Under the pieces are notes generated by a model. The model was not told where the DNA came from. It was given only the letters and a program-made list of their open reading frames with translations, and searched no databases. A stretch of 36,609 nucleotides of DNA from a virus, in the IMG/VR virus record IMGVR_UViG_3300000117_000005, positions 1 to 36,609 of that record; one strand, given 5' to 3'. Below, one piece after another: positions 2,378-30,171 of the stretch. Position 1 is the first letter of the stretch, and every line of letters starts with the position of its first letter. A program made the translations under genes and the position numbers.

Positions 2378-4742
2378 AGTTACGGACAAGAGGGACTTGC
2401 TGAACTCCATCTTCCCTAGATTGAGAAGTAAGTATTCCAGGAATAGCTGCTCCAATCAAGCTTCCGTTCTTAATGTCAGAAGCAACCTTTTCAGCAATAT
2501 TTAAAGCCTTGCGGTAAACCGTATTAGCGGCATCTTGCCTTTTAAGAAAATTTGACTTAGAAGCTGCTGTTAAAACTTGTTTAGAATTAAGCAAATCTAA
2601 GTATTCTTTCCTGTATTTAGGGTTAAGGGTCATGTTATAAGCAGTCTCTAAAAACTTTTTATTAGAAGAATCTTTAATAGCTTTAGAGATTGCCATTCTT
2701 ATGTAAACAAAATGAGCTGCATCTGGAGCTAACTTGCCATCTACGTAATCTTGTCCAGCTTTTGCTAATGATTCCACTGCGTCTACTTTTGATCCAGATT
2801 TTAACAAAAAACCTATTTGTTGTACTCTTTTTTGAGCAGCCTTATTCGGGGCTAATCTATAAACTGAACTTTTTAAAATATCACCAGTGCGATCAGTTCC
2901 ATAAATAGCTTCCAATATTTGATTCATGTTGGCGTTAGCTGGCAACGACCTAATCTTAGCTGCAAAATAACTTCCGTATAAATCATTGGCTTCTGATGGA
3001 CTAACATTAGCAATCTCGTCCATAAATTTTTTTGCTTGATTGAAGTCATTAGTTCTCGGCTTCGCCATAAATATAGAATCAAGAAACTGATCGGCATTTA
3101 ATTCTCCCTTAGAGATAATTTCTCCGAGCCTAGTGTTCTTCTTGAAATCATTTAAAGCCTTAGCAGACCTTGAGTAAGCCTCGTCGACCTTTCTAAAATC
3201 ATCTCCAAGAGCAGTTCTTAGTTCTTTAATTAATTTTTTAGCGTTTGATTTTACTTGGCTTCCTACACTGCTGTTAAAGTTGGGGTCAGACTTAAGAATA
3301 TCTCCTAGTTCTCTAATTGCTAAATGAACTTGCTCTGCTGGCTTTGTGATTTCAACTCTATCTTCAAGTCCTATTTGCCTTCCAGCAGAATCAAAAAGAA
3401 CTACATCGCCCTCTTTTGGAGACTCCAGCAACTTTTTCCACCTCATCGCAGCTTTTTGAGCCTTGTCTCCAGGGTTGCTGTTTTTTATTATTTCATCAGC
3501 TAAGTTTACAGCACCTGCAACATTTATGTCTCCTAATCTTTTATAAACCTCAGGATATTCCCTGCCTATTAGTGCCATAGGCATTTGGAATTGAACCTTT
3601 TGTATATTAGATGCTAAATCTTGTGCTGATGAAAAAACATTAAGAAGTGTTTCCTCTGGATTTAAAAGGTCAATATCTTGCTTGGACAATCTTCCAAATG
3701 TTCTTGAAAGCATAGCAGAAAGATTATTAGAAGCTTCTGCGTATTCTTTAGCGTACTTAGCAGCTAGTCTTGGATTTTTTTCTAATGCCTTCTTAAACTG
3801 TGCAGCAGAAAACTCCTCTAAAGCAGCAGAAGGCTCTATAATTTCTTTAGAAGCCACTGCTTTTAATTCATCTATATCTACACCAAGATCAATTAAAGAA
3901 TTTATGCTTTTTACATCTCTAGCTTTTTTTCTAGCTGCTGGAGAAAGTTTTCGCCAGATAGCAGGAGCCAAATCCTCTAAAACTCCACCACCAGAAGTAG
4001 CTATAGCGTCAAAAACAACCTGACCACCGTCGAACTCTCCACCACCAGCTACTTGAATACCTTCTCTTATTCCAGATGTGGTAGCTCCAGAAGCAATGCC
4101 TCTAGCAACTTTTTTTGCTAGACCTTTCCCAGCAGAAGTGAATTTTCCTGCTGGCATAAATGTAGCTATTTCTCCAACTAAAGAGATAGCGTCTTGAAGA
4201 GACCATCCAGGAGAGTTTATAGCTAACTCTTCCCCATTTATAGTTATCGTTGGGTACGGGCCATCAATATTAACATCAAATCCTTCGTCAGCAAGAAGCA
4301 TAGCCCTTTCCTTAACATCTGGATATAGCAAAGCATTAACCATTCCACCAAAACCACCCCTGTACTCGTTAAGGTTCTTTAGTCTTATTTTCGCAGCTTC
4401 ATCAAGATCTTCAATACTAGGGGGCTTTTCAGATTCAAATTCCAGCCTTGATTGATATGACGGTATAACGCCTCTACGAACGCCTTCAAAATCCCTTCTC
4501 ATAGCCTCTAACTCCTTAGAAGCAAATTGCTTGGCAGATCGTTTTACTTTATCTAAAAGAGGTATTTCCTCAGGAGAATCTCTTAGCTCTCCCAAGGCAG
4601 GTTGATTTGGGGTTTGCCTTGGTTCTCCCGTGCCGTAACGAGCAACATACTCGTCTACTAGTATTTTTACGTCTTCAGTATTGCCAGCATTTTCAGCTTT
4701 TATAATAGCCTGCTTGAGCTGTTCTTGAGTTACATCAGCCAT
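2376..4742 (-). CDS. Large virion-associated protein (putative internal/ejection protein), 788 aa
   Basis: ATG start. Last and largest gene of the late operon. Helical, K/E/A-rich composition. The call rests on position only. Confidence 0.4.
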   Translation of the reverse strand: MADVTQEQLKQAIIKAENAGNTEDVKILVDEYVARYGTGEPRQTPNQPALGELRDSPEEIPLLDKVKRSAKQFASKELEAMRRDFEGVRRGVIPSYQSRLEFESEKPPSIEDLDEAAKIRLKNLNEYRGGFGGMVNALLYPDVKERAMLLADEGFDVNIDGPYPTITINGEELAINSPGWSLQDAISLVGEIATFMPAGKFTSAGKGLAKKVARGIASGATTSGIREGIQVAGGGEFDGGQVVFDAIATSGGGVLEDLAPAIWRKLSPAARKKARDVKSINSLIDLGVDIDELKAVASKEIIEPSAALEEFSAAQFKKALEKNPRLAAKYAKEYAEASNNLSAMLSRTFGRLSKQDIDLLNPEETLLNVFSSAQDLASNIQKVQFQMPMALIGREYPEVYKRLGDINVAGAVNLADEIIKNSNPGDKAQKAAMRWKKLLESPKEGDVVLFDSAGRQIGLEDRVEITKPAEQVHLAIRELGDILKSDPNFNSSVGSQVKSNAKKLIKELRTALGDDFRKVDEAYSRSAKALNDFKKNTRLGEIISKGELNADQFLDSIFMAKPRTNDFNQAKKFMDEIANVSPSEANDLYGSYFAAKIRSLPANANMNQILEAIYGTDRTGDILKSSVYRLAPNKAAQKRVQQIGFLLKSGSKVDAVESLAKAGQDYVDGKLAPDAAHFVYIRMAISKAIKDSSNKKFLETAYNMTLNPKYRKEYLDLLNSKQVLTAASKSNFLKRQDAANTVYRKALNIAEKVASDIKNGSLIGAAIPGILTSQSREDGVQQVPLVRN

Positions 4743-25163: not shown

Positions 25164-26624
25164 CTAATATCCTGATCCTATGCGGGTTGTCATCATGCTT
25201 CTAGAAAGAACGTGGTCAGGGCCATCGCCTCCATTCGCCATTCGCAAATAGCGAATAATGTCGAAGAAGTCCTTTAATGGCTCATCAGCCTTGCCTGAAG
25301 CGTTGTAGTTAATTAAAGAGTCTATAAGGTTACCGCAGTCCTCATGTATGTAGCACCTTGGTCTGTTAGCGGAATCTATTGGTACGTTTGGATTGTAGCT
25401 AAACCACTCATCTATAGCACTAATGCCTATCTCTTCCATTCTGCCATCTGACGGAATAAAGGTCATGCCGCAATCATCGAACTCAGTGAACAAGTCATCG
25501 TTGTCGGAGTTCTCCTTAGCGAAGTACCTACTGTCACCTATACGCTCAAATACCTCTATCTCAATGTCATCCTCTATCTCCTCAAACAGATCAACGTACC
25601 CCTGCACGTTGTAACCTATCTTCTTTGATGCTGGCCCATAACGCCACTTAGGATCACCGAACACAGCCCACTCTCCGTAGTAGTCCCTGTCAGGCCACTC
25701 CTTCCGAATGTACACATCTCCCTTTTCGTTTACTCCTGCCCATATCGCTACATAATTCCTGGCTCCTGCTGGGTCAACTACCTGATAACAAGTGTACCTG
25801 TGCTGATCAGATATGTCAGGAAAGGACATACCGTACTTATTTGGCTCATCGCTTAATACGTTAACCTCAGTGTTAAACAAGGGCAACAAAGAAGTCATGC
25901 TCTTAACGGGTATACCGTAAGCACGTACTAGTATCTCTTCTTCTGGTCTGCCTCTAAGGTCTTTAGCTATACGCTCATAACCACCAAAGGGGTTCTCATC
26001 TGAGTGCAGGTACACCACTGAGGCATCCCTAGATGGGCTGTACTGCTTGATGGGGACTTCCTTATCTATAAGTACACCAGTACGAGTCTTAAGCGTTTCT
26101 ACGTCCTTTAAGTACTCTGCCACAAAGGGAGTATAACCATCAATGGGAGTAAAGCCTATACCCATCTTTGCGTCCCTAGTAGCCAGTCGGAACCTAAGGG
26201 TATTTACTAATGAGGCATCACCTAGGTACTCATCTAACCACGCACCTATATTCAAGCCCTTAGCATCAGGAAAACCGAACTCAAAGCCCTCTAAGATAGT
26301 CTGGTTGTTACTGTACTGGGTGTACGTCTTGAAGTCTACACGGGTACGGGTATCAGGGAAGATAAAGCTCTTAGCCGTAAACCCGTTCTGCATACTGTAA
26401 TTAATGTACCCTTCGATGCTCTTAGTCTTCTTCTTAAATTCTTTAGGCATCATCTCCCATATAGCTGCTTGCTGCACCTTAATGGAAGTATCTTCGTTCT
26501 GGGAGAAGCATACTAGGTGACCATCATTGCTTTCAGTCACTGCTTCCATTACGATCTTAGCGAACCCTGTAGTCTTACCTGATCTGTTACCACCAAGAAC
26601 CAAGCACTCGTTGTAATCCTGCAA
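25164..26624 (-). CDS. terL: Terminase large subunit
   Basis: Walker A LVLGGNRSGKT, then ATPase and nuclease-type regions. The listed start is TTG only 11 codons before Walker A. The frame stays open a further 66 codons upstream (to 26822) with no ATG, GTG or TTG. Confidence 0.85.
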   Translation of the reverse strand: MQDYNECLVLGGNRSGKTTGFAKIVMEAVTESNDGHLVCFSQNEDTSIKVQQAAIWEMMPKEFKKKTKSIEGYINYSMQNGFTAKSFIFPDTRTRVDFKTYTQYSNNQTILEGFEFGFPDAKGLNIGAWLDEYLGDASLVNTLRFRLATRDAKMGIGFTPIDGYTPFVAEYLKDVETLKTRTGVLIDKEVPIKQYSPSRDASVVYLHSDENPFGGYERIAKDLRGRPEEEILVRAYGIPVKSMTSLLPLFNTEVNVLSDEPNKYGMSFPDISDQHRYTCYQVVDPAGARNYVAIWAGVNEKGDVYIRKEWPDRDYYGEWAVFGDPKWRYGPASKKIGYNVQGYVDLFEEIEDDIEIEVFERIGDSRYFAKENSDNDDLFTEFDDCGMTFIPSDGRMEEIGISAIDEWFSYNPNVPIDSANRPRCYIHEDCGNLIDSLINYNASGKADEPLKDFFDIIRYLRMANGGDGPDHVLSRSMMTTRIGSGY

Positions 26625-26805
26625 CCCATCCTTTATTCGCTCCCATCCAGGTAGGTTGAACCCATGGCGAATAGGATCGTCCTCAGATGCCTTAATCCTG
26701 CTTTCATGAGCCTTGTGTAGCTCTTTAAGAAGATTAAGGTCGTTCTCGTACAGCCAGACAATTTCCTCTGCTGTAGGAGGAGTCAGAAAGGGATGTTCAG
26801 TAAAC

Positions 26806-27024
26806 TTAATTATTTTTCCAGTCTATTTTCTCTAGCTCTTGCATGGACTTCTTAGCAACTAAGGCCAATAAGACAGCTAGGTTTTCTTGGAAGTGCTCTT
26901 CATCCATTTTGTTGAAGACATCGTACTCGAAGCCATCCTCTGTAACCGTAGCAACTAAAACAGATTGCCACCCTGGAGTAATAGTGTCTAAGCACTTATG
27001 AACTAAATCAGGGTTATTGTTCAT
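26806..27024 (-). CDS. Hypothetical protein (72 aa); one base off-frame from the TerL upstream extension
   Basis: ATG start, TAATG-coupled upstream. Its stop (26808-26806) lies inside the open TerL-frame extension. Confidence 0.5.
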   Translation of the reverse strand: MNNNPDLVHKCLDTITPGWQSVLVATVTEDGFEYDVFNKMDEEHFQENLAVLLALVAKKSMQELEKIDWKNN

Positions 27025-27311
27025 TAAATAATTCTTGTTATGTCGTGCTTAATGGGATCGCTTCTAAATGGCTTCTTTTCAATGGTGGAGGAAGTGGGAT
27101 TCGCACCCACGTCTTCAGAAGTATCCTCCTGAATCGAATCTAAATTACCCCCAGAAAAAACACCTTCGTTGCTGTTTTTACCCCCTCTAAATCTACTTTC
27201 GTACTCCTTGATGTCCGTATAAAAAGGTTCCTGAGGACGGAATACCCTATTGTAACCTTCGTAAAACTTGTCCCAGTTAGACACCCTGTTTCTATCGCCT
27301 TTACCGTTCAT
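27024..27311 (-). CDS. Hypothetical protein (95 aa) with an N-terminal GKGDRNR...W.KF..GY..VF motif
   Basis: ATG start; overlaps the upstream gene by 11 nt. The motif recalls a widespread small phage protein of unknown function. Confidence 0.5.
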   Translation of the reverse strand: MNGKGDRNRVSNWDKFYEGYNRVFRPQEPFYTDIKEYESRFRGGKNSNEGVFSGGNLDSIQEDTSEDVGANPTSSTIEKKPFRSDPIKHDITRII

Positions 27312-27870
27312 CGTCTAAATCTATTACCTGTGCTTCCTTCATTTTGTTCTTAGCCTTTTCCATAAGCTCCCTGTAGTCCTCATCAGTGTAAACCTTCTCC
27401 TCACGGTTAATACTCGTAGCTTCACCCCTAGCCAATAAAGCCTCTCTAGCTGAGTTAGCCTTAGCTATACTTATATCCTTAATATCCTTAAAGGTAGGCT
27501 TAATCTCACCTGACTCCATGTCCTCACGTACCTTCTGAACCATATCTTCCTCTAAGGAACTAATATGCAGATAAGAATAAGATGCTAATTGACCACCTAA
27601 CTCCCTCCACTTACCTAAGTGATCAGCGTAAGTAGCCAGTACCCTAACAATAGTATTCCTCTTGAACCCGTACTTGCGTACTAACTGAGTCTGAGTCTTA
27701 CCACTAGCACTAAGAAACAATATCTTAGCTGCTTTTTCAGGATCGTACTTCTCTAATGCCTTAACACCATCAAGCTCAGAACCCTTAACGAACTCTTTAA
27801 TCTTTTCATCTATGTCAGATAAAAGTTTTTCCTTGATTAATTCTTGTTGCACATTACTCTTATTGCACAT
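27301..27870 (-). CDS. Terminase small subunit-like DNA-binding protein
   Basis: First gene of the late arm, three genes upstream of TerL. HTH-like KTQTQLVRKYGFKRNTIVRVL. The track start at 27921 is TTG; the first ATG (MCNKSNVQQ) is at 27870. Confidence 0.5.
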   Translation of the reverse strand: MCNKSNVQQELIKEKLLSDIDEKIKEFVKGSELDGVKALEKYDPEKAAKILFLSASGKTQTQLVRKYGFKRNTIVRVLATYADHLGKWRELGGQLASYSYLHISSLEEDMVQKVREDMESGEIKPTFKDIKDISIAKANSAREALLARGEATSINREEKVYTDEDYRELMEKAKNKMKEAQVIDLDDER

Positions 27871-28009
27871 TATTATAATTATGTCAATCAATACGTACCG
27901 TAAACCCCTTGAGTGCAACAATTTTTAAAGGGGTAGTTTATGATAAAAGTACCGACCGCCCTCAGCGTTTTTAACCCCCACCCCCCCTTGGTTTACACTT
28001 TATTTACAT

Positions 28010-28215
28010 TTTGATTAGTCAAAGTACTGACTTTGATTAGTCAAACTTTAGACTTTGATTGATCAAACTGAACACTTTGATTAGTCAAAGAAAACACTTT
28101 GATTGATCAAACAATGGATTTTGATTAGTCAAAATTAGTACTTTGATTAGTCAAAATGTAAAATTTGATTGCTCAAAATAACCTGGCTGATCACAATGAC
28201 ATTTTTTTTGATCAA
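28010..28215. repeat. Array of 8 phased 14-bp dyad boxes TTTGATTRRTCAAA (22-bp period) plus 2 degenerate TGATCA cores
   Basis: Boxes start at 28010, 28032, 28054, 28076, 28098, 28120, 28142 and 28164. Degenerate cores are at 28188-28193 and 28208-28215. Confidence 0.95.
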
Positions 28216-28223
28216 TGGTGATG

Positions 28224-28255
28224 CAATCCAATGCCTAAAACCAATCCAGTGCCTA
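28224..28255. repeat. 14-bp direct repeat CAATCCARTGCCTA x2
   Basis: Copies at 28224-28237 and 28242-28255 with one mismatch. Confidence 0.85.
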
Positions 28256-28256
28256 T

Positions 28257-28396
28257 CTCTAAGCCCTTTTAATGGTTACTTTTTAGATCCCTTTCATTGG
28301 CTCTAAGGCTCTAAGCTCTTAGGCTTTAAAGCTCTAATCGCTAGCCCTAAGCCCTTTGATAAGCTCTAAGAGCTTCCCTTTGATCTCTTAGGCTCT
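28257..28396. repeat. Cluster of CTCTAAG / CTCTTAG heptamers in both orientations
   Basis: CTCTAAG at 28257, 28301, 28309 and 28364. CTCTTAG at 28316 and 28385. Variants at 28331 and 28345. The 13-nt palindrome AGCTCTAAGAGCT is at 28362-28374. Confidence 0.85.
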
Positions 28397-28459
28397 CTTC
28401 AATCGCATTATACCATTAAGCTTTAAACGCGTCAAACGATTCTAAAGGTATTTGGACAC

Positions 28460-28489
28460 AAAAAAGCCCCAACCTGTTAAGGCAAGGGC
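28460..28489 (-). terminator. Rho-independent terminator downstream of the 295-aa ORF
   Basis: Minus-sense GCCCTTGCC-TTAACA-GGTTGGGGC (two G-U pairs and one mismatch), followed by TTTTTT (plus A-run 28460-28465). Confidence 0.65.
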
Positions 28490-28514
28490 TTTAAAGGGCT
28501 TTAAAAGGCTCTAA

Positions 28515-29402
28515 TTATAGTTCATTGTTAAGCCTTTCTATTTCAGCGAACTTTACGATATGGCAACCAGCTCGAACCGTACCAATAGTTGAAACTGCAT
28601 CAAGTTGGTAGTTGCCAAGCTCGAATCGCTCACCGTTCCGTTGCCAAGATTTGCCGCTTTTCATTACTGATTTCACAAATCGGATTGCTAGCCTTGCTTG
28701 CTCTGTAGGAAAATGAGCTCCCTTAGAGGTTTCAACGGTCTTCCCGTCATCAATCAATCTAAGCAAGGTTTCGGGATATGACACAATCCAAACCTTTTTC
28801 CCGTTTCGCCAAGCGATCACATTTTCTTCCATTTCGGCTTTTAACTTAGCTAGCTTTTCAGCTTTCCGCTTTGCTTCCCGAATTCGGATTGCTTTGATTT
28901 TCTCTTTTATGTCTTCCGCTTCGAAATCGAAATCAAAATCAAAGTCCTTTAAGAGATGCTTGCAATCAAAGGTTTCGCTGTAGTCGAACGCTTGCGCGCG
29001 AGTATCCTTTGCCCCTTTTAAATAAAAATCGAAGTAAGATCGAGCCTTCGAAGCCTTTTTAATGTAGAAAGCAAATTTTCTAGCGTAATGCCTTAAGTTC
29101 GTTCGATCACATCTTTCGTATCTTTCGCTACCTGTTGAGGGAACTTCGAAAGTTTTGATAGAATCAGGGATTGATCCCCTTACGATTGAAGCGTGTTTAC
29201 TCGTTGAAACCGAGTAGCGCTCTGAGTTAATCAAAACGACTTTATTTTCCTGAAACTTAGCAATAGTATAGTGTTCACCATAGCTATATATAGAAGAGCC
29301 ATAAAAGAACATATTGCTTGCCCTTCCATGGTCTTGATTTTGCTGCGCCCAAACATGGGCGACTTCATTGTGATTTCTTAATACAGTTCTCATATTCAAC
29401 AT
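28515..29402 (-). CDS. Orphan 295-aa protein of unknown function, bracketed by repeat arrays
   Basis: ATG start. N-terminal domain (VAHVWAQQ...FFYGSSIYSYGEHYTIA...SVSTSKH), an acidic FDFDFDFE tract followed by a K/E-rich helix, and a C-terminal domain (...VETSKGAHFP...VRAGCHIV). It has its own terminator. Confidence 0.7.
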   Translation of the reverse strand: MLNMRTVLRNHNEVAHVWAQQNQDHGRASNMFFYGSSIYSYGEHYTIAKFQENKVVLINSERYSVSTSKHASIVRGSIPDSIKTFEVPSTGSERYERCDRTNLRHYARKFAFYIKKASKARSYFDFYLKGAKDTRAQAFDYSETFDCKHLLKDFDFDFDFEAEDIKEKIKAIRIREAKRKAEKLAKLKAEMEENVIAWRNGKKVWIVSYPETLLRLIDDGKTVETSKGAHFPTEQARLAIRFVKSVMKSGKSWQRNGERFELGNYQLDAVSTIGTVRAGCHIVKFAEIERLNNEL

Positions 29403-29417
29403 TTTTTCAGTGTTTGC

Positions 29418-29491
29418 AAAAAAGGGAAGTGCCCCTTTTTTATAGTAAAGTAATTTGAAGCGGATTTTTTAGAAAAGGGAAGCCTTTTTTT
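29418..29491. promoter_or_regulatory. Two A-run/GC/T-run hairpins sharing AAAAGGGAAG, just upstream of the 295-aa ORF
   Basis: AAAAAAGGGaagtgCCCCTTTTTT (29418-29441) and AAAAGGgaagCCTTTTTTT (29473-29491). Both look terminator-like on either strand, but the GC stems are short. Confidence 0.5.
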
Positions 29492-29554
29492 CAGTTATTT
29501 TGAAAGGTCTTTGAAGTGAATCTTTAAGGTTTCAAATGTCACTATTTTTTCACC

Positions 29555-29724
29555 AGGGATTGTAAAAAAAATGTAAACGTAAAATATCTGTAAATGTAAA
29601 TTTATTGTAAATGTAAAATGTTTGTAAAAGTAAAAAAAGTGTAAATGTAAATAATTCGTAAACGTAAATAAAATGTAAATGTAAAATATTTGTTAATGTA
29701 AATAAACTGTAAATTGAGATTAGG
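29555..29724. repeat. Array of about 10 units of TGTAAAYGTAAA plus a 5-nt variable spacer (exact 17-bp period)
   Basis: Units start at 29555 (half unit), 29572, 29589, 29606, 29623, 29640, 29657, 29674, 29691 and 29708 (half unit). Confidence 0.95.
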
Positions 29725-29764
29725 TCTCATTATCATGTTTATTGAGAATGGGTCTTATTATCAT
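29714..29764. repeat. 23-bp direct repeat TTGAGAWTRGGTCTYATTATCAT x2
   Basis: Copies at 29714-29736 and 29742-29764, 20/23 identical, start to start 28 bp. Confidence 0.85.
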
Positions 29765-29786
29765 CAACCTGGTAGATGATTGATTT

Positions 29787-29833
29787 CATATACATACATA
29801 CATACATACATACATACATCTACATACATCTAC
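29787..29833. repeat. Tetranucleotide microsatellite (TACA)n ending in a duplicated TACATACATC
   Basis: The tract reads cata(tacata...)tc tacatacatc tac. Seven uninterrupted TACA units lie at 29791-29818. Confidence 0.95.
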
Positions 29834-29982
29834 TGTACGACAACGGATCTACTGGGATGCTCTTCCCTCTTATACATTGTACATTTTCGGCAAAGTTCAT
29901 TGTACTGAAAAATAATTCTTTACCTTTTCAGCTTCTTTCGTCAACTTTTGGAGCATGGATAAACAAGTAATCTTAACCATCA

Positions 29983-30125
29983 AGCGCAACAATGGCGCTA
30001 GCTGGGCGCGGCGTAGCCGTTGACCCCAACTGATTTGGCAACCGCGCTCACGACGAGTGGTGATGCTCTCAGCTTTGATTAAGTTCATGCCTTCGGGTTG
30101 CTGTGGTCGTATGCCTGCTAAAGCT
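29983..30125. other. G+C-rich, helix-rich island in the AT-rich hub (candidate small RNA or structured DNA; alternatively a 63-aa minus-strand ORF 29897..30088)
   Basis: Helices: AGCGC/GCGCT (29983-87/29995-99); GGGCGCGG/CCGCGCTC (30004-11/30042-49) enclosing GTTG-accc-CAAC; a CC-TTCG-GG loop (30090-97); AGCTTT/AAAGCT (30071-76/30120-25). Confidence 0.3.
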
Positions 30126-30139
30126 CGTCATATTTTACA

Positions 30140-30171
30140 TTGTCACAAATTGACCCTTCAATATGTGACAA
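30140..30171. promoter_or_regulatory. Perfect 8-bp inverted repeat TTGTCACA-N16-TGTGACAA at the head of the early operon (operator-like)
   Basis: Arms at 30140-30147 and 30164-30171. It encloses TTGACC (30150-55) and lies 20 nt upstream of the first early ATG (30191). Confidence 0.55.

Follow-up and report, generated by a model that had tools for sequence, protein, structure and literature searches.

A phased array of two to eight dyad boxes at the early/late junction of uncultured marine phages is a candidate operator of late transcription

From arrays of phased dyad sites, phages and plasmids assemble their switches, origins and centromeres. The tripartite operators of lambdoid phages are bound cooperatively by Cro and CI dimers. 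At the lambda replication origin (ori), dimers of the O protein bind four dyad-symmetric iterons of 18–19 bp, and Rep_3 proteins bind plasmid iterons of 22 bp. The stoperators of mycobacteriophage L5 are asymmetric 13-mers, which are scattered singly over the genome and are active in one orientation. Here we describe a phased array in IMG/VR record IMGVR_UViG_3300000117_000005. The analyzed stretch covers all 36,609 nucleotides of the record (the window hereafter); the assembly is complete and circular, with a length of ~36,542 bp and ends that overlap by 67 bp. It comes from an uncultured marine phage, and the genome resembles that of a lytic phage. The array consists of eight 14-bp boxes and lies between the early and the late genes, upstream of the gene for a small-terminase-like (TerS-like) protein. 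It is a real, conserved and copy-number-variable element, which we tentatively read as an operator that would gate late transcription.

The boxes, of the form TTTGATTNNTCAAA, start at positions 28010, 28032, 28054, 28076, 28098, 28120, 28142 and 28164, and all box-to-box intervals are exactly 22 bp. Five boxes read TTTGATTAGTCAAA, two read TTTGATTGATCAAA and one reads TTTGATTGCTCAAA; in the direction of late transcription, the box is TTTGAnnAATCAAA(G/A)T. The array had been noticed in an earlier reading of the letters alone (the sequence-only reading hereafter), and both the sequence itself and a pattern scan confirmed its eight boxes, their positions, the intervals and the 5/2/1 distribution of variants. 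The distance from the start of the first box to the TerS-like ATG downstream (27870) is 140 bp, as stated in that reading. Its minor details also agreed with the sequence: five of the seven internal spacers end in AC, TGATCA and TTGATCAA cores are present at 28188 and 28208, and CCCTTTGAT occurs at 28352 and 28376. The two degenerate units that hold these cores (−329 and −351) are poorly conserved among relatives. On its proximal flank, the array is followed by just 19 AT-rich bp (27992–28010) and then by a G-run.

Chance does not account for the boxes. With up to one mismatch allowed, TTTGATTNNTCAAA has 15 matches over both strands, every one of them within the array, compared to 0.60 ± 0.86 matches in shuffled sequence; none of 100 shuffles reached 15. 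With up to three mismatches, TTTGATTAATCAAA matches the genome at only two places outside the array, each of them with three mismatches. The whole-genome scan thus confined the boxes to one locus of the 36.5-kb circular genome. Tandem Repeats Finder reported a period of 22 with 7.7 copies, and a second repeat search reported a spacing of 22 six times for the array.

Relatives were collected by a TerS-based IMG/VR search, which yielded 80 loci, and further loci were added by pattern scans and look-ups. Orthologous arrays with the same unit structure are present in independent IMG/VR, JGI and ENA assemblies; the array is therefore not an assembly artefact, an explanation that the sequence-only reading had kept in view. 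The number of units varies from two to eight. Eight units were found in the window and in L012/L083, L016/L081/L084, L123 and L231, seven in L232–L234, six in L006/L008/L114, three in L126 and two in L107. The arrays differ in length by whole units only, and the 22-bp phase is always kept. Identical eight-unit arrays occur in separate assemblies (L016 and L123). The contigs of L235 and L236 stop 263 bp past the start of a conserved promoter, whereas the L231 array starts 279 bp past it; these two contigs therefore probably broke at the array. The scan for boxes that the sequence-only reading had proposed for this genome and related contigs thus returned a single locus here and arrays of two to eight units in the relatives.

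The units are not equally variable along their length. Among the aligned eight-unit arrays, 1 of 96 arm columns is variable, compared to 14 of 64 spacer columns (Fisher p = 1e-5 for arm versus spacer variability) and 5 of 16 columns of the central dinucleotide. The arms TTTGA and ATCAAA are unchanged in all 43 units, distal ones included. Outside the box, unit position 16 is always T, and position 21 is A in 34 of the 43 units. With these two positions conserved, each site is an 18-bp dyad, AnTTTGAnnAATCAAAnT, and neighboring sites are 4 bp apart; some relatives carry the perfect palindrome TTTGATTAATCAAA. Judged from these alignments, the box arms are under purifying selection. The earlier suggestion that phased dyads serve cooperative binding by a dimeric protein holds, with selected arms, a strict phase and an 18-bp dyad. 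Besides, the spacer at 28024–28031 reads gtcagtac on the late strand in the window and L012, and is replaced by its exact reverse complement, gtactgac, in unit 7 of L016, L006 and L123; this swap corresponds to a small inversion between inverted box arms.

The box and its 22-bp register are also present in L102, L103, L135, L137, L130 and L152, in which TerS is only 48–49% identical to that of the window. This lineage carries two boxes and a degenerate third, just upstream of TerS. In AT-rich, T7-like marine contigs (L101, L129, L122, L136, L112 and L139), the interval from TerL to the early genes holds a two-box module, TTTGATTCGTCAAA-N8-TTTGATTCGTCAAA, with spacers similar to the ones in the L135 lineage (ctctttac versus gtctgtac). 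The T7-like module may reflect horizontal spread or a shared host factor, and in these unrelated marine phages it may be a landing pad for such a host factor.

In most relatives, many of them with a TerS of 93–98% identity, homology to the window breaks at ~27942–27946. In L027, L028 and L031, window positions 29908–29962 are joined to 27946 within ~330–590 bp; the stretch from ~27947 to 29907 is therefore replaceable. By this comparison, the array is part of an accessory cassette, which is composed of a DUF8033 gene, a terminator, a promoter and the array itself. The array, then, is an accessory element of two to eight units and not a fixed feature of the phage group. Absence from close relatives, which the sequence-only reading had regarded as telling against the element, is indeed found in many of them; the genomes that carry the array, however, clearly conserve it.

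In a presence/absence matrix of the close clade, the 295-aa DUF8033 gene is the only open reading frame (ORF) of the window that tracks the array. It was assigned through PHROGs (phrog_7247), and its fold matches in BFVD are only uncharacterised and DUF8033 proteins. The AlphaFold model, with a predicted local distance difference test score (pLDDT) of 94, contains two β-rich domains linked by long helices; neither sequence nor fold comparison (Foldseek) identified a match in the PDB. Residues H16, H70, C280 and H281 are invariant over 33 DUF8033 homologues, which suggests a putative metal site. Homologues of the protein occur widely among phages, some of them in the terminal repeats of phiCbK-like Caulobacter phages. 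In L231–L236, where DUF8033 is 77–90% identical, one extra conserved 95-aa gene overlaps the DUF8033 stop codon (3283–3570 in L232, for example); this gene is absent from the window, in which tblastn found no trace of it.

What might the array do? Our preferred reading, held tentatively, is that it serves as an operator on which a sequence-specific, probably dimeric protein docks, and that it gates the late operon. Dimers would dock on the 18-bp dyads, one per 22 bp (about two helical turns), and up to eight of them would lie on roughly one face of the DNA and cooperate over ~170 bp. The filled array would block or occlude transcription of the late operon, and would act as a gate or timer for the packaging and structural genes. 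The eight-copy form would have expanded from a site of two or three boxes. We infer the binding of a protein, its dimeric state, the repressive direction and the promoter used from the layout and conservation of the region.

Besides the selection on the arms, the strict phase, the restriction of the boxes to one locus and the spread of the element as a self-contained cassette, three features favor the operator reading: the order of promoter, array and late operon, the TTGACA of the TerS-49% lineage, and the operator-like geometry of the two- and three-box forms. The promoter, TTGACG-N17-TATAAT, precedes the distal box by 176–280 bp and is conserved in the window, L231–L236, L012, L006, L114 and L126 (all promoter calls here are consensus matches). 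No terminator was predicted between this promoter and TerS in the window; in array-bearing genomes, the late operon is therefore separated from the best promoter by the array. For the TerS-49% lineage, the gap between the proximal box and a TTGACA oriented toward TerS is 4 bp. The two- and three-box forms have a 14-bp dyad and a centre-to-centre spacing of 22 bp, a layout which is that of the classical tripartite phage operators. The array-less relative L009 carries a perfect 12/12 promoter, located 6 nt upstream of the same G-run; by eye, the proximal box of the window holds a −35-like TTGACT where L009 has this promoter. From its position, the L009 sigma-70 promoter would start transcription at the G-run. 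Among the three functions that the sequence-only reading had offered, the operator fits best, if tentatively; the packaging site is weakened by the TerS comparison, and the replication origin by the replication genes that array-less relatives share.

Several observations weigh against an operator. The boxes are situated 180–400 bp downstream of the best promoter, not over it; roadblock repression at such distances is plausible but unusual. The candidate promoter on the proximal side, TTGACT-N19-TGTAAA, is weak and was spotted by eye only. Eight sites exceed the need of any operator known to us. As for the cognate binder, the early and cassette ORFs gave no helix-turn-helix (HTH), ribbon-helix-helix or repressor match in Pfam, PHROGs and NCBIfam, which leaves room for proteins below detection. 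DUF8033, encoded by the sole co-occurring gene, has no known DNA-binding fold. No box lies near the DUF8033 homologues of 55% identity (L087 type) or the more distant ones, and the box-bearing TerS-49% lineage (L135) has no DUF8033 gene within 6.7 kb upstream.

As the only linked gene product, DUF8033 is a weak candidate for the array binder. In the boldest version, the array and the DUF8033 gene would form a portable 'repressor plus operator-array' cassette, in which DUF8033, as a sequence-specific DNA-binding protein, would coat two to eight phased dyads and time the late genes by titration as genomes replicate. We regard this as quite unlikely. Between the window and the other box-bearing lineages, no shared early or cassette protein was found at E < 0.01. 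If true, the cassette would provide the first function for DUF8033 and a copy-number-tunable timer of late genes in lytic phages.

Two rivals of the operator concern DNA metabolism. The array could be an iteron-type origin, at which an initiator would bind the phased repeats, and wrap and melt the adjacent DNA, with transcription from the upstream promoter activating the origin; we consider this unlikely. In-phase repeats, eight in number, variable in copy number and restricted to a single locus, are typical of iterons. When bacterial genomes and metagenomes were scanned, tandem iterons of 22 bp (core TTTGAYGAATCAAA plus 8 bp, ~5 copies) turned up directly upstream of Rep_3 genes on plasmid-like contigs. 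However, that match was selected by the search pattern itself. (The iterons of L094, from Hymenobacter, lie at 3745–3870, and L116, L146 and L148 are metagenome contigs; the iteron family shares the core of the phage box. Rep_3 of L094 is supported by Pfam Rep3_N at 6.7e-33, and those of the other three were judged by eye from N-terminal resemblance.) No DNA polymerase or primase was recognised in the phage, and host machinery must be recruited; in more distant relatives, the place of the array is taken by GTATCCA repeats that resemble DnaA boxes, and the genomes also encode HTH_36 and DnaA_C-domain proteins. Yet no initiator (Rep_3, phage O/HTH_36 or DnaA_C) was detected in the window by Pfam, PHROGs or NCBIfam, DnaA boxes are not enriched, and no evident AT-rich unwinding element adjoins the array, with 19 AT-rich bp before the G-run and the very AT-rich 17-bp array 1.4 kb away. 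The cumulative GC-skew minimum falls at ~28.5–29.5 kb, where the direction of transcription switches, so that it adds no independent evidence. The replication module is common to array-less relatives, with the helicase 96–99% and the 246-aa protein resembling single-stranded DNA-binding (SSB) proteins 96–98% identical; the array is therefore not the essential origin of that module. Similar comparisons bear on packaging. As an accessory packaging site (pac, cosB-like or cosQ-like), the repeats would be bound by terminase or a host bending protein, and the G-run and hairpin next to them would be the real cut or recognition site. The location is suggestive: the array is 140 bp from TerS, beside a G-run and a hairpin that co-segregate with TerS/TerL across the group; the two-box module of the unrelated T7-like contigs occupies the TerL–early interval, the usual place of terminal repeats; and several contigs end near the array. 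But assembly by itself would be expected to leave contig ends at repeats and mosaic breakpoints, and the array does not follow TerS. The TerS of array-less L009 differs by S5N, G30S and K41R only (3 of 189 residues) and is identical in the HTH (~48–82), whereas the same box is paired with a TerS of only 48–49% identity, in which the second HTH helix is different; this pattern argues against a TerS pac/cosB site. In the 60–64% TerS class, the HTH is near-constant while the upstream repeats vary (GTATCC, GTATTC, GTCCTAG and CGCTTC). For a host bending protein, the array logo matches only the WATCAA part of the IHF consensus WATCAANNNNTTR. A packaging role of the array is thus very unlikely in our opinion, and TerS as the array binder was ruled out by the HTH alignment. 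The G-run and hairpin are better packaging or leader candidates than the array, because they co-segregate with TerS/TerL, array-less relatives and Phage C75C1 included; the pair may act as a leader element, as a cos/pac core or as a start prone to R-loops.

The other two rivals are an RNA element and a neutral expansion. Transcribed into the late leader, the array would form one long imperfect hairpin of ~75 bp, with a role in RNase III processing, in pausing or attenuation, or in transcript stability. The conserved promoter upstream and the lack of a predicted terminator in between are compatible with such a transcript, whose minimum free energy is −57 kcal/mol, compared to −26.6 ± 3.2 for shuffles (z = −9.6); folded as DNA, the array gives z = −7.3. 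The outer spacers are partly complementary as well, e.g. ttttacat with atgtaaat. A strong fold, however, follows automatically from in-phase palindromic boxes. The commonest box produces two C·A mismatches per box pair (box positions 6 and 9), the arms are invariant and not co-varying and show no compensatory changes, spacer 7 is inverted between relatives while its partner is unchanged, and the two-box forms would yield a stem of only 14 bp. Rfam gave no match for the array, and the Rfam and tRNA scans found neither tRNAs nor known RNA families. The exact box recurs in unrelated phages, which fits recognition by a protein better; there is little chance, in our judgement, that the array works as RNA. 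Nor do we expect it to be a largely neutral minisatellite, in which slippage or unequal exchange would have expanded a functional two- or three-box site into functionless extra copies; this seems to us as improbable as the hairpin. Such expansion would suit the range of two to eight copies among phages with near-identical neighboring genes, and simple repeats nearby are unstable too: (ATAC)n varies from 10 to 26 copies, and some relatives have the 17-bp array while others do not. Against neutrality, the arms are invariant in 43/43 units, the distal ones included, while the spacers diverge; the eight-unit arrays of L016 and L123 are identical in different assemblies; and all length changes keep the 22-bp phase.

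The array and its neighbors are listed in Table 1. The early genes are on the plus strand (29776 → 36609 → 1 → 2314) and encode, among others, a Dda/PIF1-like helicase, a metallophosphoesterase and an endonuclease VII. The late genes are on the minus strand (27870 → 2376), in the order TerS-like (weak HTH_23), TerL and putative portal protein. Pfam, PHROGs and NCBIfam scans recognised no polymerase, primase, integrase or repressor, and the searches run found no lysogeny genes, integrase included. Early and late arms are separated by 1.9 kb. In late direction, the junction is made up of the 17-bp array, the DUF8033 gene, a terminator-like hairpin, the promoter, a stretch of ~220 nt, the 22-bp array (28177–28010), two TGTAAA motifs, the G-run, the hairpin and TerS. 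No deposited phage matches the window at the DNA level; the nearest deposited genome is Phage C75C1, in which the portal protein is 69% identical, the G-run and hairpin are present and the array is absent.

Table 1. Features of the early/late junction of the window
Feature	Coordinates	Strand	Remarks
22-bp array, eight 14-bp boxes	28010..28177	.	Sequence, pattern scan, repeat finders
Two degenerate units, in the 22-bp register of the array	28186..28215	.	Cores TGATCA (28188) and TTGATCAA (28208)
TGTAAA pair ATGTAAATAAAGTGTAAAC, motifs 11 bp apart	27992..28011	-	Between proximal box and G-run
G-run GGGGGGGTGGGGG	27975..27987	- (late-transcript strand)	Conserved in much of the TerS-related group
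Hairpin ACCCCTT ... AAGGGGT	27904..27934	-	Inside conserved stretch 27871-27946 upstream of TerS
TerS-like gene, 189 aa, first of the late arm	27301..27870	-	Weak HTH_23 match
Sigma-70-type promoter (consensus match) TTGACG-N17-TATAAT with upstream TG	28407..28435	-	11/12 match; faces array and TerS
Intrinsic-terminator-like hairpin followed by TTTTTT	28466..28483	-	Directly downstream of DUF8033 gene
Promoter-to-array stretch, ~220 nt	28180..28400	-	Rich in CTAAGAGC/CTTAGAGC repeats
DUF8033-family gene, 295 aa, phrog_7247	28515..29402	-	Tracks array presence in the close clade
Second array, nine 17-bp units, two (T)GTAAA motifs each	29561..29714	+	AT-rich stretch

On the TerS side of the array, the match of the TerS-like protein to HTH_23 has an E-value of 0.0098, which is below the family cut-off, and its counterpart in L090 has a weak Terminase_2 match. 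The G-run, of the form GGGGGG(N)GGGGG(T), and the hairpin lie about 60–115 bp upstream of TerS. Both are kept in array-less relatives, in the 60–64% TerS class and in Phage C75C1; the hairpin element is also present in L009 and the distant classes. The pair ATGTAAATAAAGTGTAAAC is found in all array-bearing relatives and is an inverted copy of the 17-bp-array unit, with complementarity of up to 95%. On the other side, the promoter-to-array stretch is 87–90% identical in array-bearing relatives, and as RNA it has moderate structure (z = −2.49). Further down the late arm, homology of TerL (26624–26810, minus strand) to the 550-aa TerL of L087 (79% identity) runs 62 codons above the first ATG/GTG/TTG, and in frame it reaches 26810. 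The GTG of L087 is ATT in the window, overlapping the stop of an upstream 72-aa ORF; this arrangement suggests a possible non-canonical ATT start or translational coupling.

The junction contains other repeats. The 17-bp array is located in a stretch of ~20% GC between the DUF8033 gene and the early genes, and TGTAAA units in opposite orientation thus stand at both ends of the cassette (29561–29714 and 27992–28011). The 17-bp array is present in L081 and L084, and absent from the other array-bearing relatives; its minus strand contains a series of TTTACA-N17 promoter-like matches. Two 28-bp direct repeats with the dyad TGAGA-N5-TCTCA (TTGAGATTAGGTCTCATTATCA) are found at 29708–29763, just upstream of the early genes. 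A similar dyad is directly beside the two- and three-box arrays of L107 and L126, and may be a second operator type. The (ATAC)n microsatellite of the early control region (29790–29829) has 10.5 copies in the window and ~15–26 in L081, L083, L082, L008, L107 and L126; it yields a spurious low-complexity ORF (29776–29970). A GC-rich stretch of ~200 bp at 29964–30170 is flanked by sequence that matches relatives, and is itself without DNA match in the relatives examined. A basic 63-aa ORF lies on its minus strand (29897–30088), and no tRNA or Rfam match was found. In the more distant relatives L039–L057 and L063–L079, short lineage-specific direct repeats, namely GTATCCA (DnaA-box-like), GTATTC, GTCCTAG and CGCTTCGCTCG, are present at −135 to −300 from TerS, where the array lies in the window; their genomes contain a module of HTH_36, DnaA_C and primase-helicase. 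As a general rule, the early/late junction seems to house repeat arrays that are particular to a lineage.

The array is placed at the early/late junction of an abundant, uncultured marine phage group and marks a recombination-prone accessory cassette. Its 2-, 3-, 6-, 7- and 8-copy variants provide a natural allelic series for relating the number of sites to the strength or timing of a switch. Identification of the binder might give DUF8033 a function, or point to a host factor exploited by several marine phage lineages.

To our knowledge, the box matches no known site, and literature text searches with the box sequences, DUF8033 and C75C1 returned nothing relevant. A host search of bacterial genomes found only unrelated two- and three-box matches and the Rep_3 plasmid iterons. 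Known motifs were compared informally. FNR (TTGAT-N4-ATCAA) has the same half-sites at a spacing 2 bp longer, and CRP, ARG boxes, IHF, Fis, DnaA, KorB, C-boxes and CtsR do not fit. By eye, Bacteroidetes-type promoters in the boxes were inconsistent.

Compared to described systems, the array shows partial likeness to several. Like F sopC and other tandem centromeres, it contains many in-phase units, each with a short inverted repeat; different from them, it is accompanied by no ParA, ParB or ParR match in PHROGs, Pfam and NCBIfam scans of the ORFs. Lambda cosB R-sites, SPP1 pacL/pacR and the P1 pac hexamers are also repeats beside a small-terminase gene, and the decay of the array into TGATCA cores recalls P1 pac. 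However, the array does not co-vary with the DNA-binding domain of TerS, and it is on the far side of the G-run from TerS; the P1-pac-like TGATCA hexamers are not conserved in relatives. With lambda ori and the 22-bp plasmid iterons (Rep_3; R6K and RK2 types), the array shares a phase of ~22 bp, a variable number of copies and one locus per replicon, and its core TTTGAYnnRTCAAA is also that of the Rep_3 plasmid-like contigs. Unlike iteron origins, it has no detected initiator gene and no evident AT-rich unwinding region next to it, and it is dispensable in relatives that share the replication genes. The L5 stoperators resemble it in position, being repressor sites downstream of promoters and inside transcription units, at which elongating RNA polymerase is halted, as we propose for the array; the sites described here, in contrast, are palindromic and clustered at one locus. 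The lambdoid tripartite operators (434, and OR1–OR3 of lambda) consist of 14–18-bp dyads about two turns apart, located between divergent units, as the boxes are. Different from these operators, the array has up to eight copies, most of its boxes are downstream of the best promoter, no second operator set was found in the genome scan, no CI/Cro-like HTH gene was found, and no lysogeny genes turned up in the searches run. The two- and three-box arrays of L107, L126 and L135, however, match the lambdoid tripartite layout exactly, and on present evidence the mechanism of the array belongs to a familiar class.

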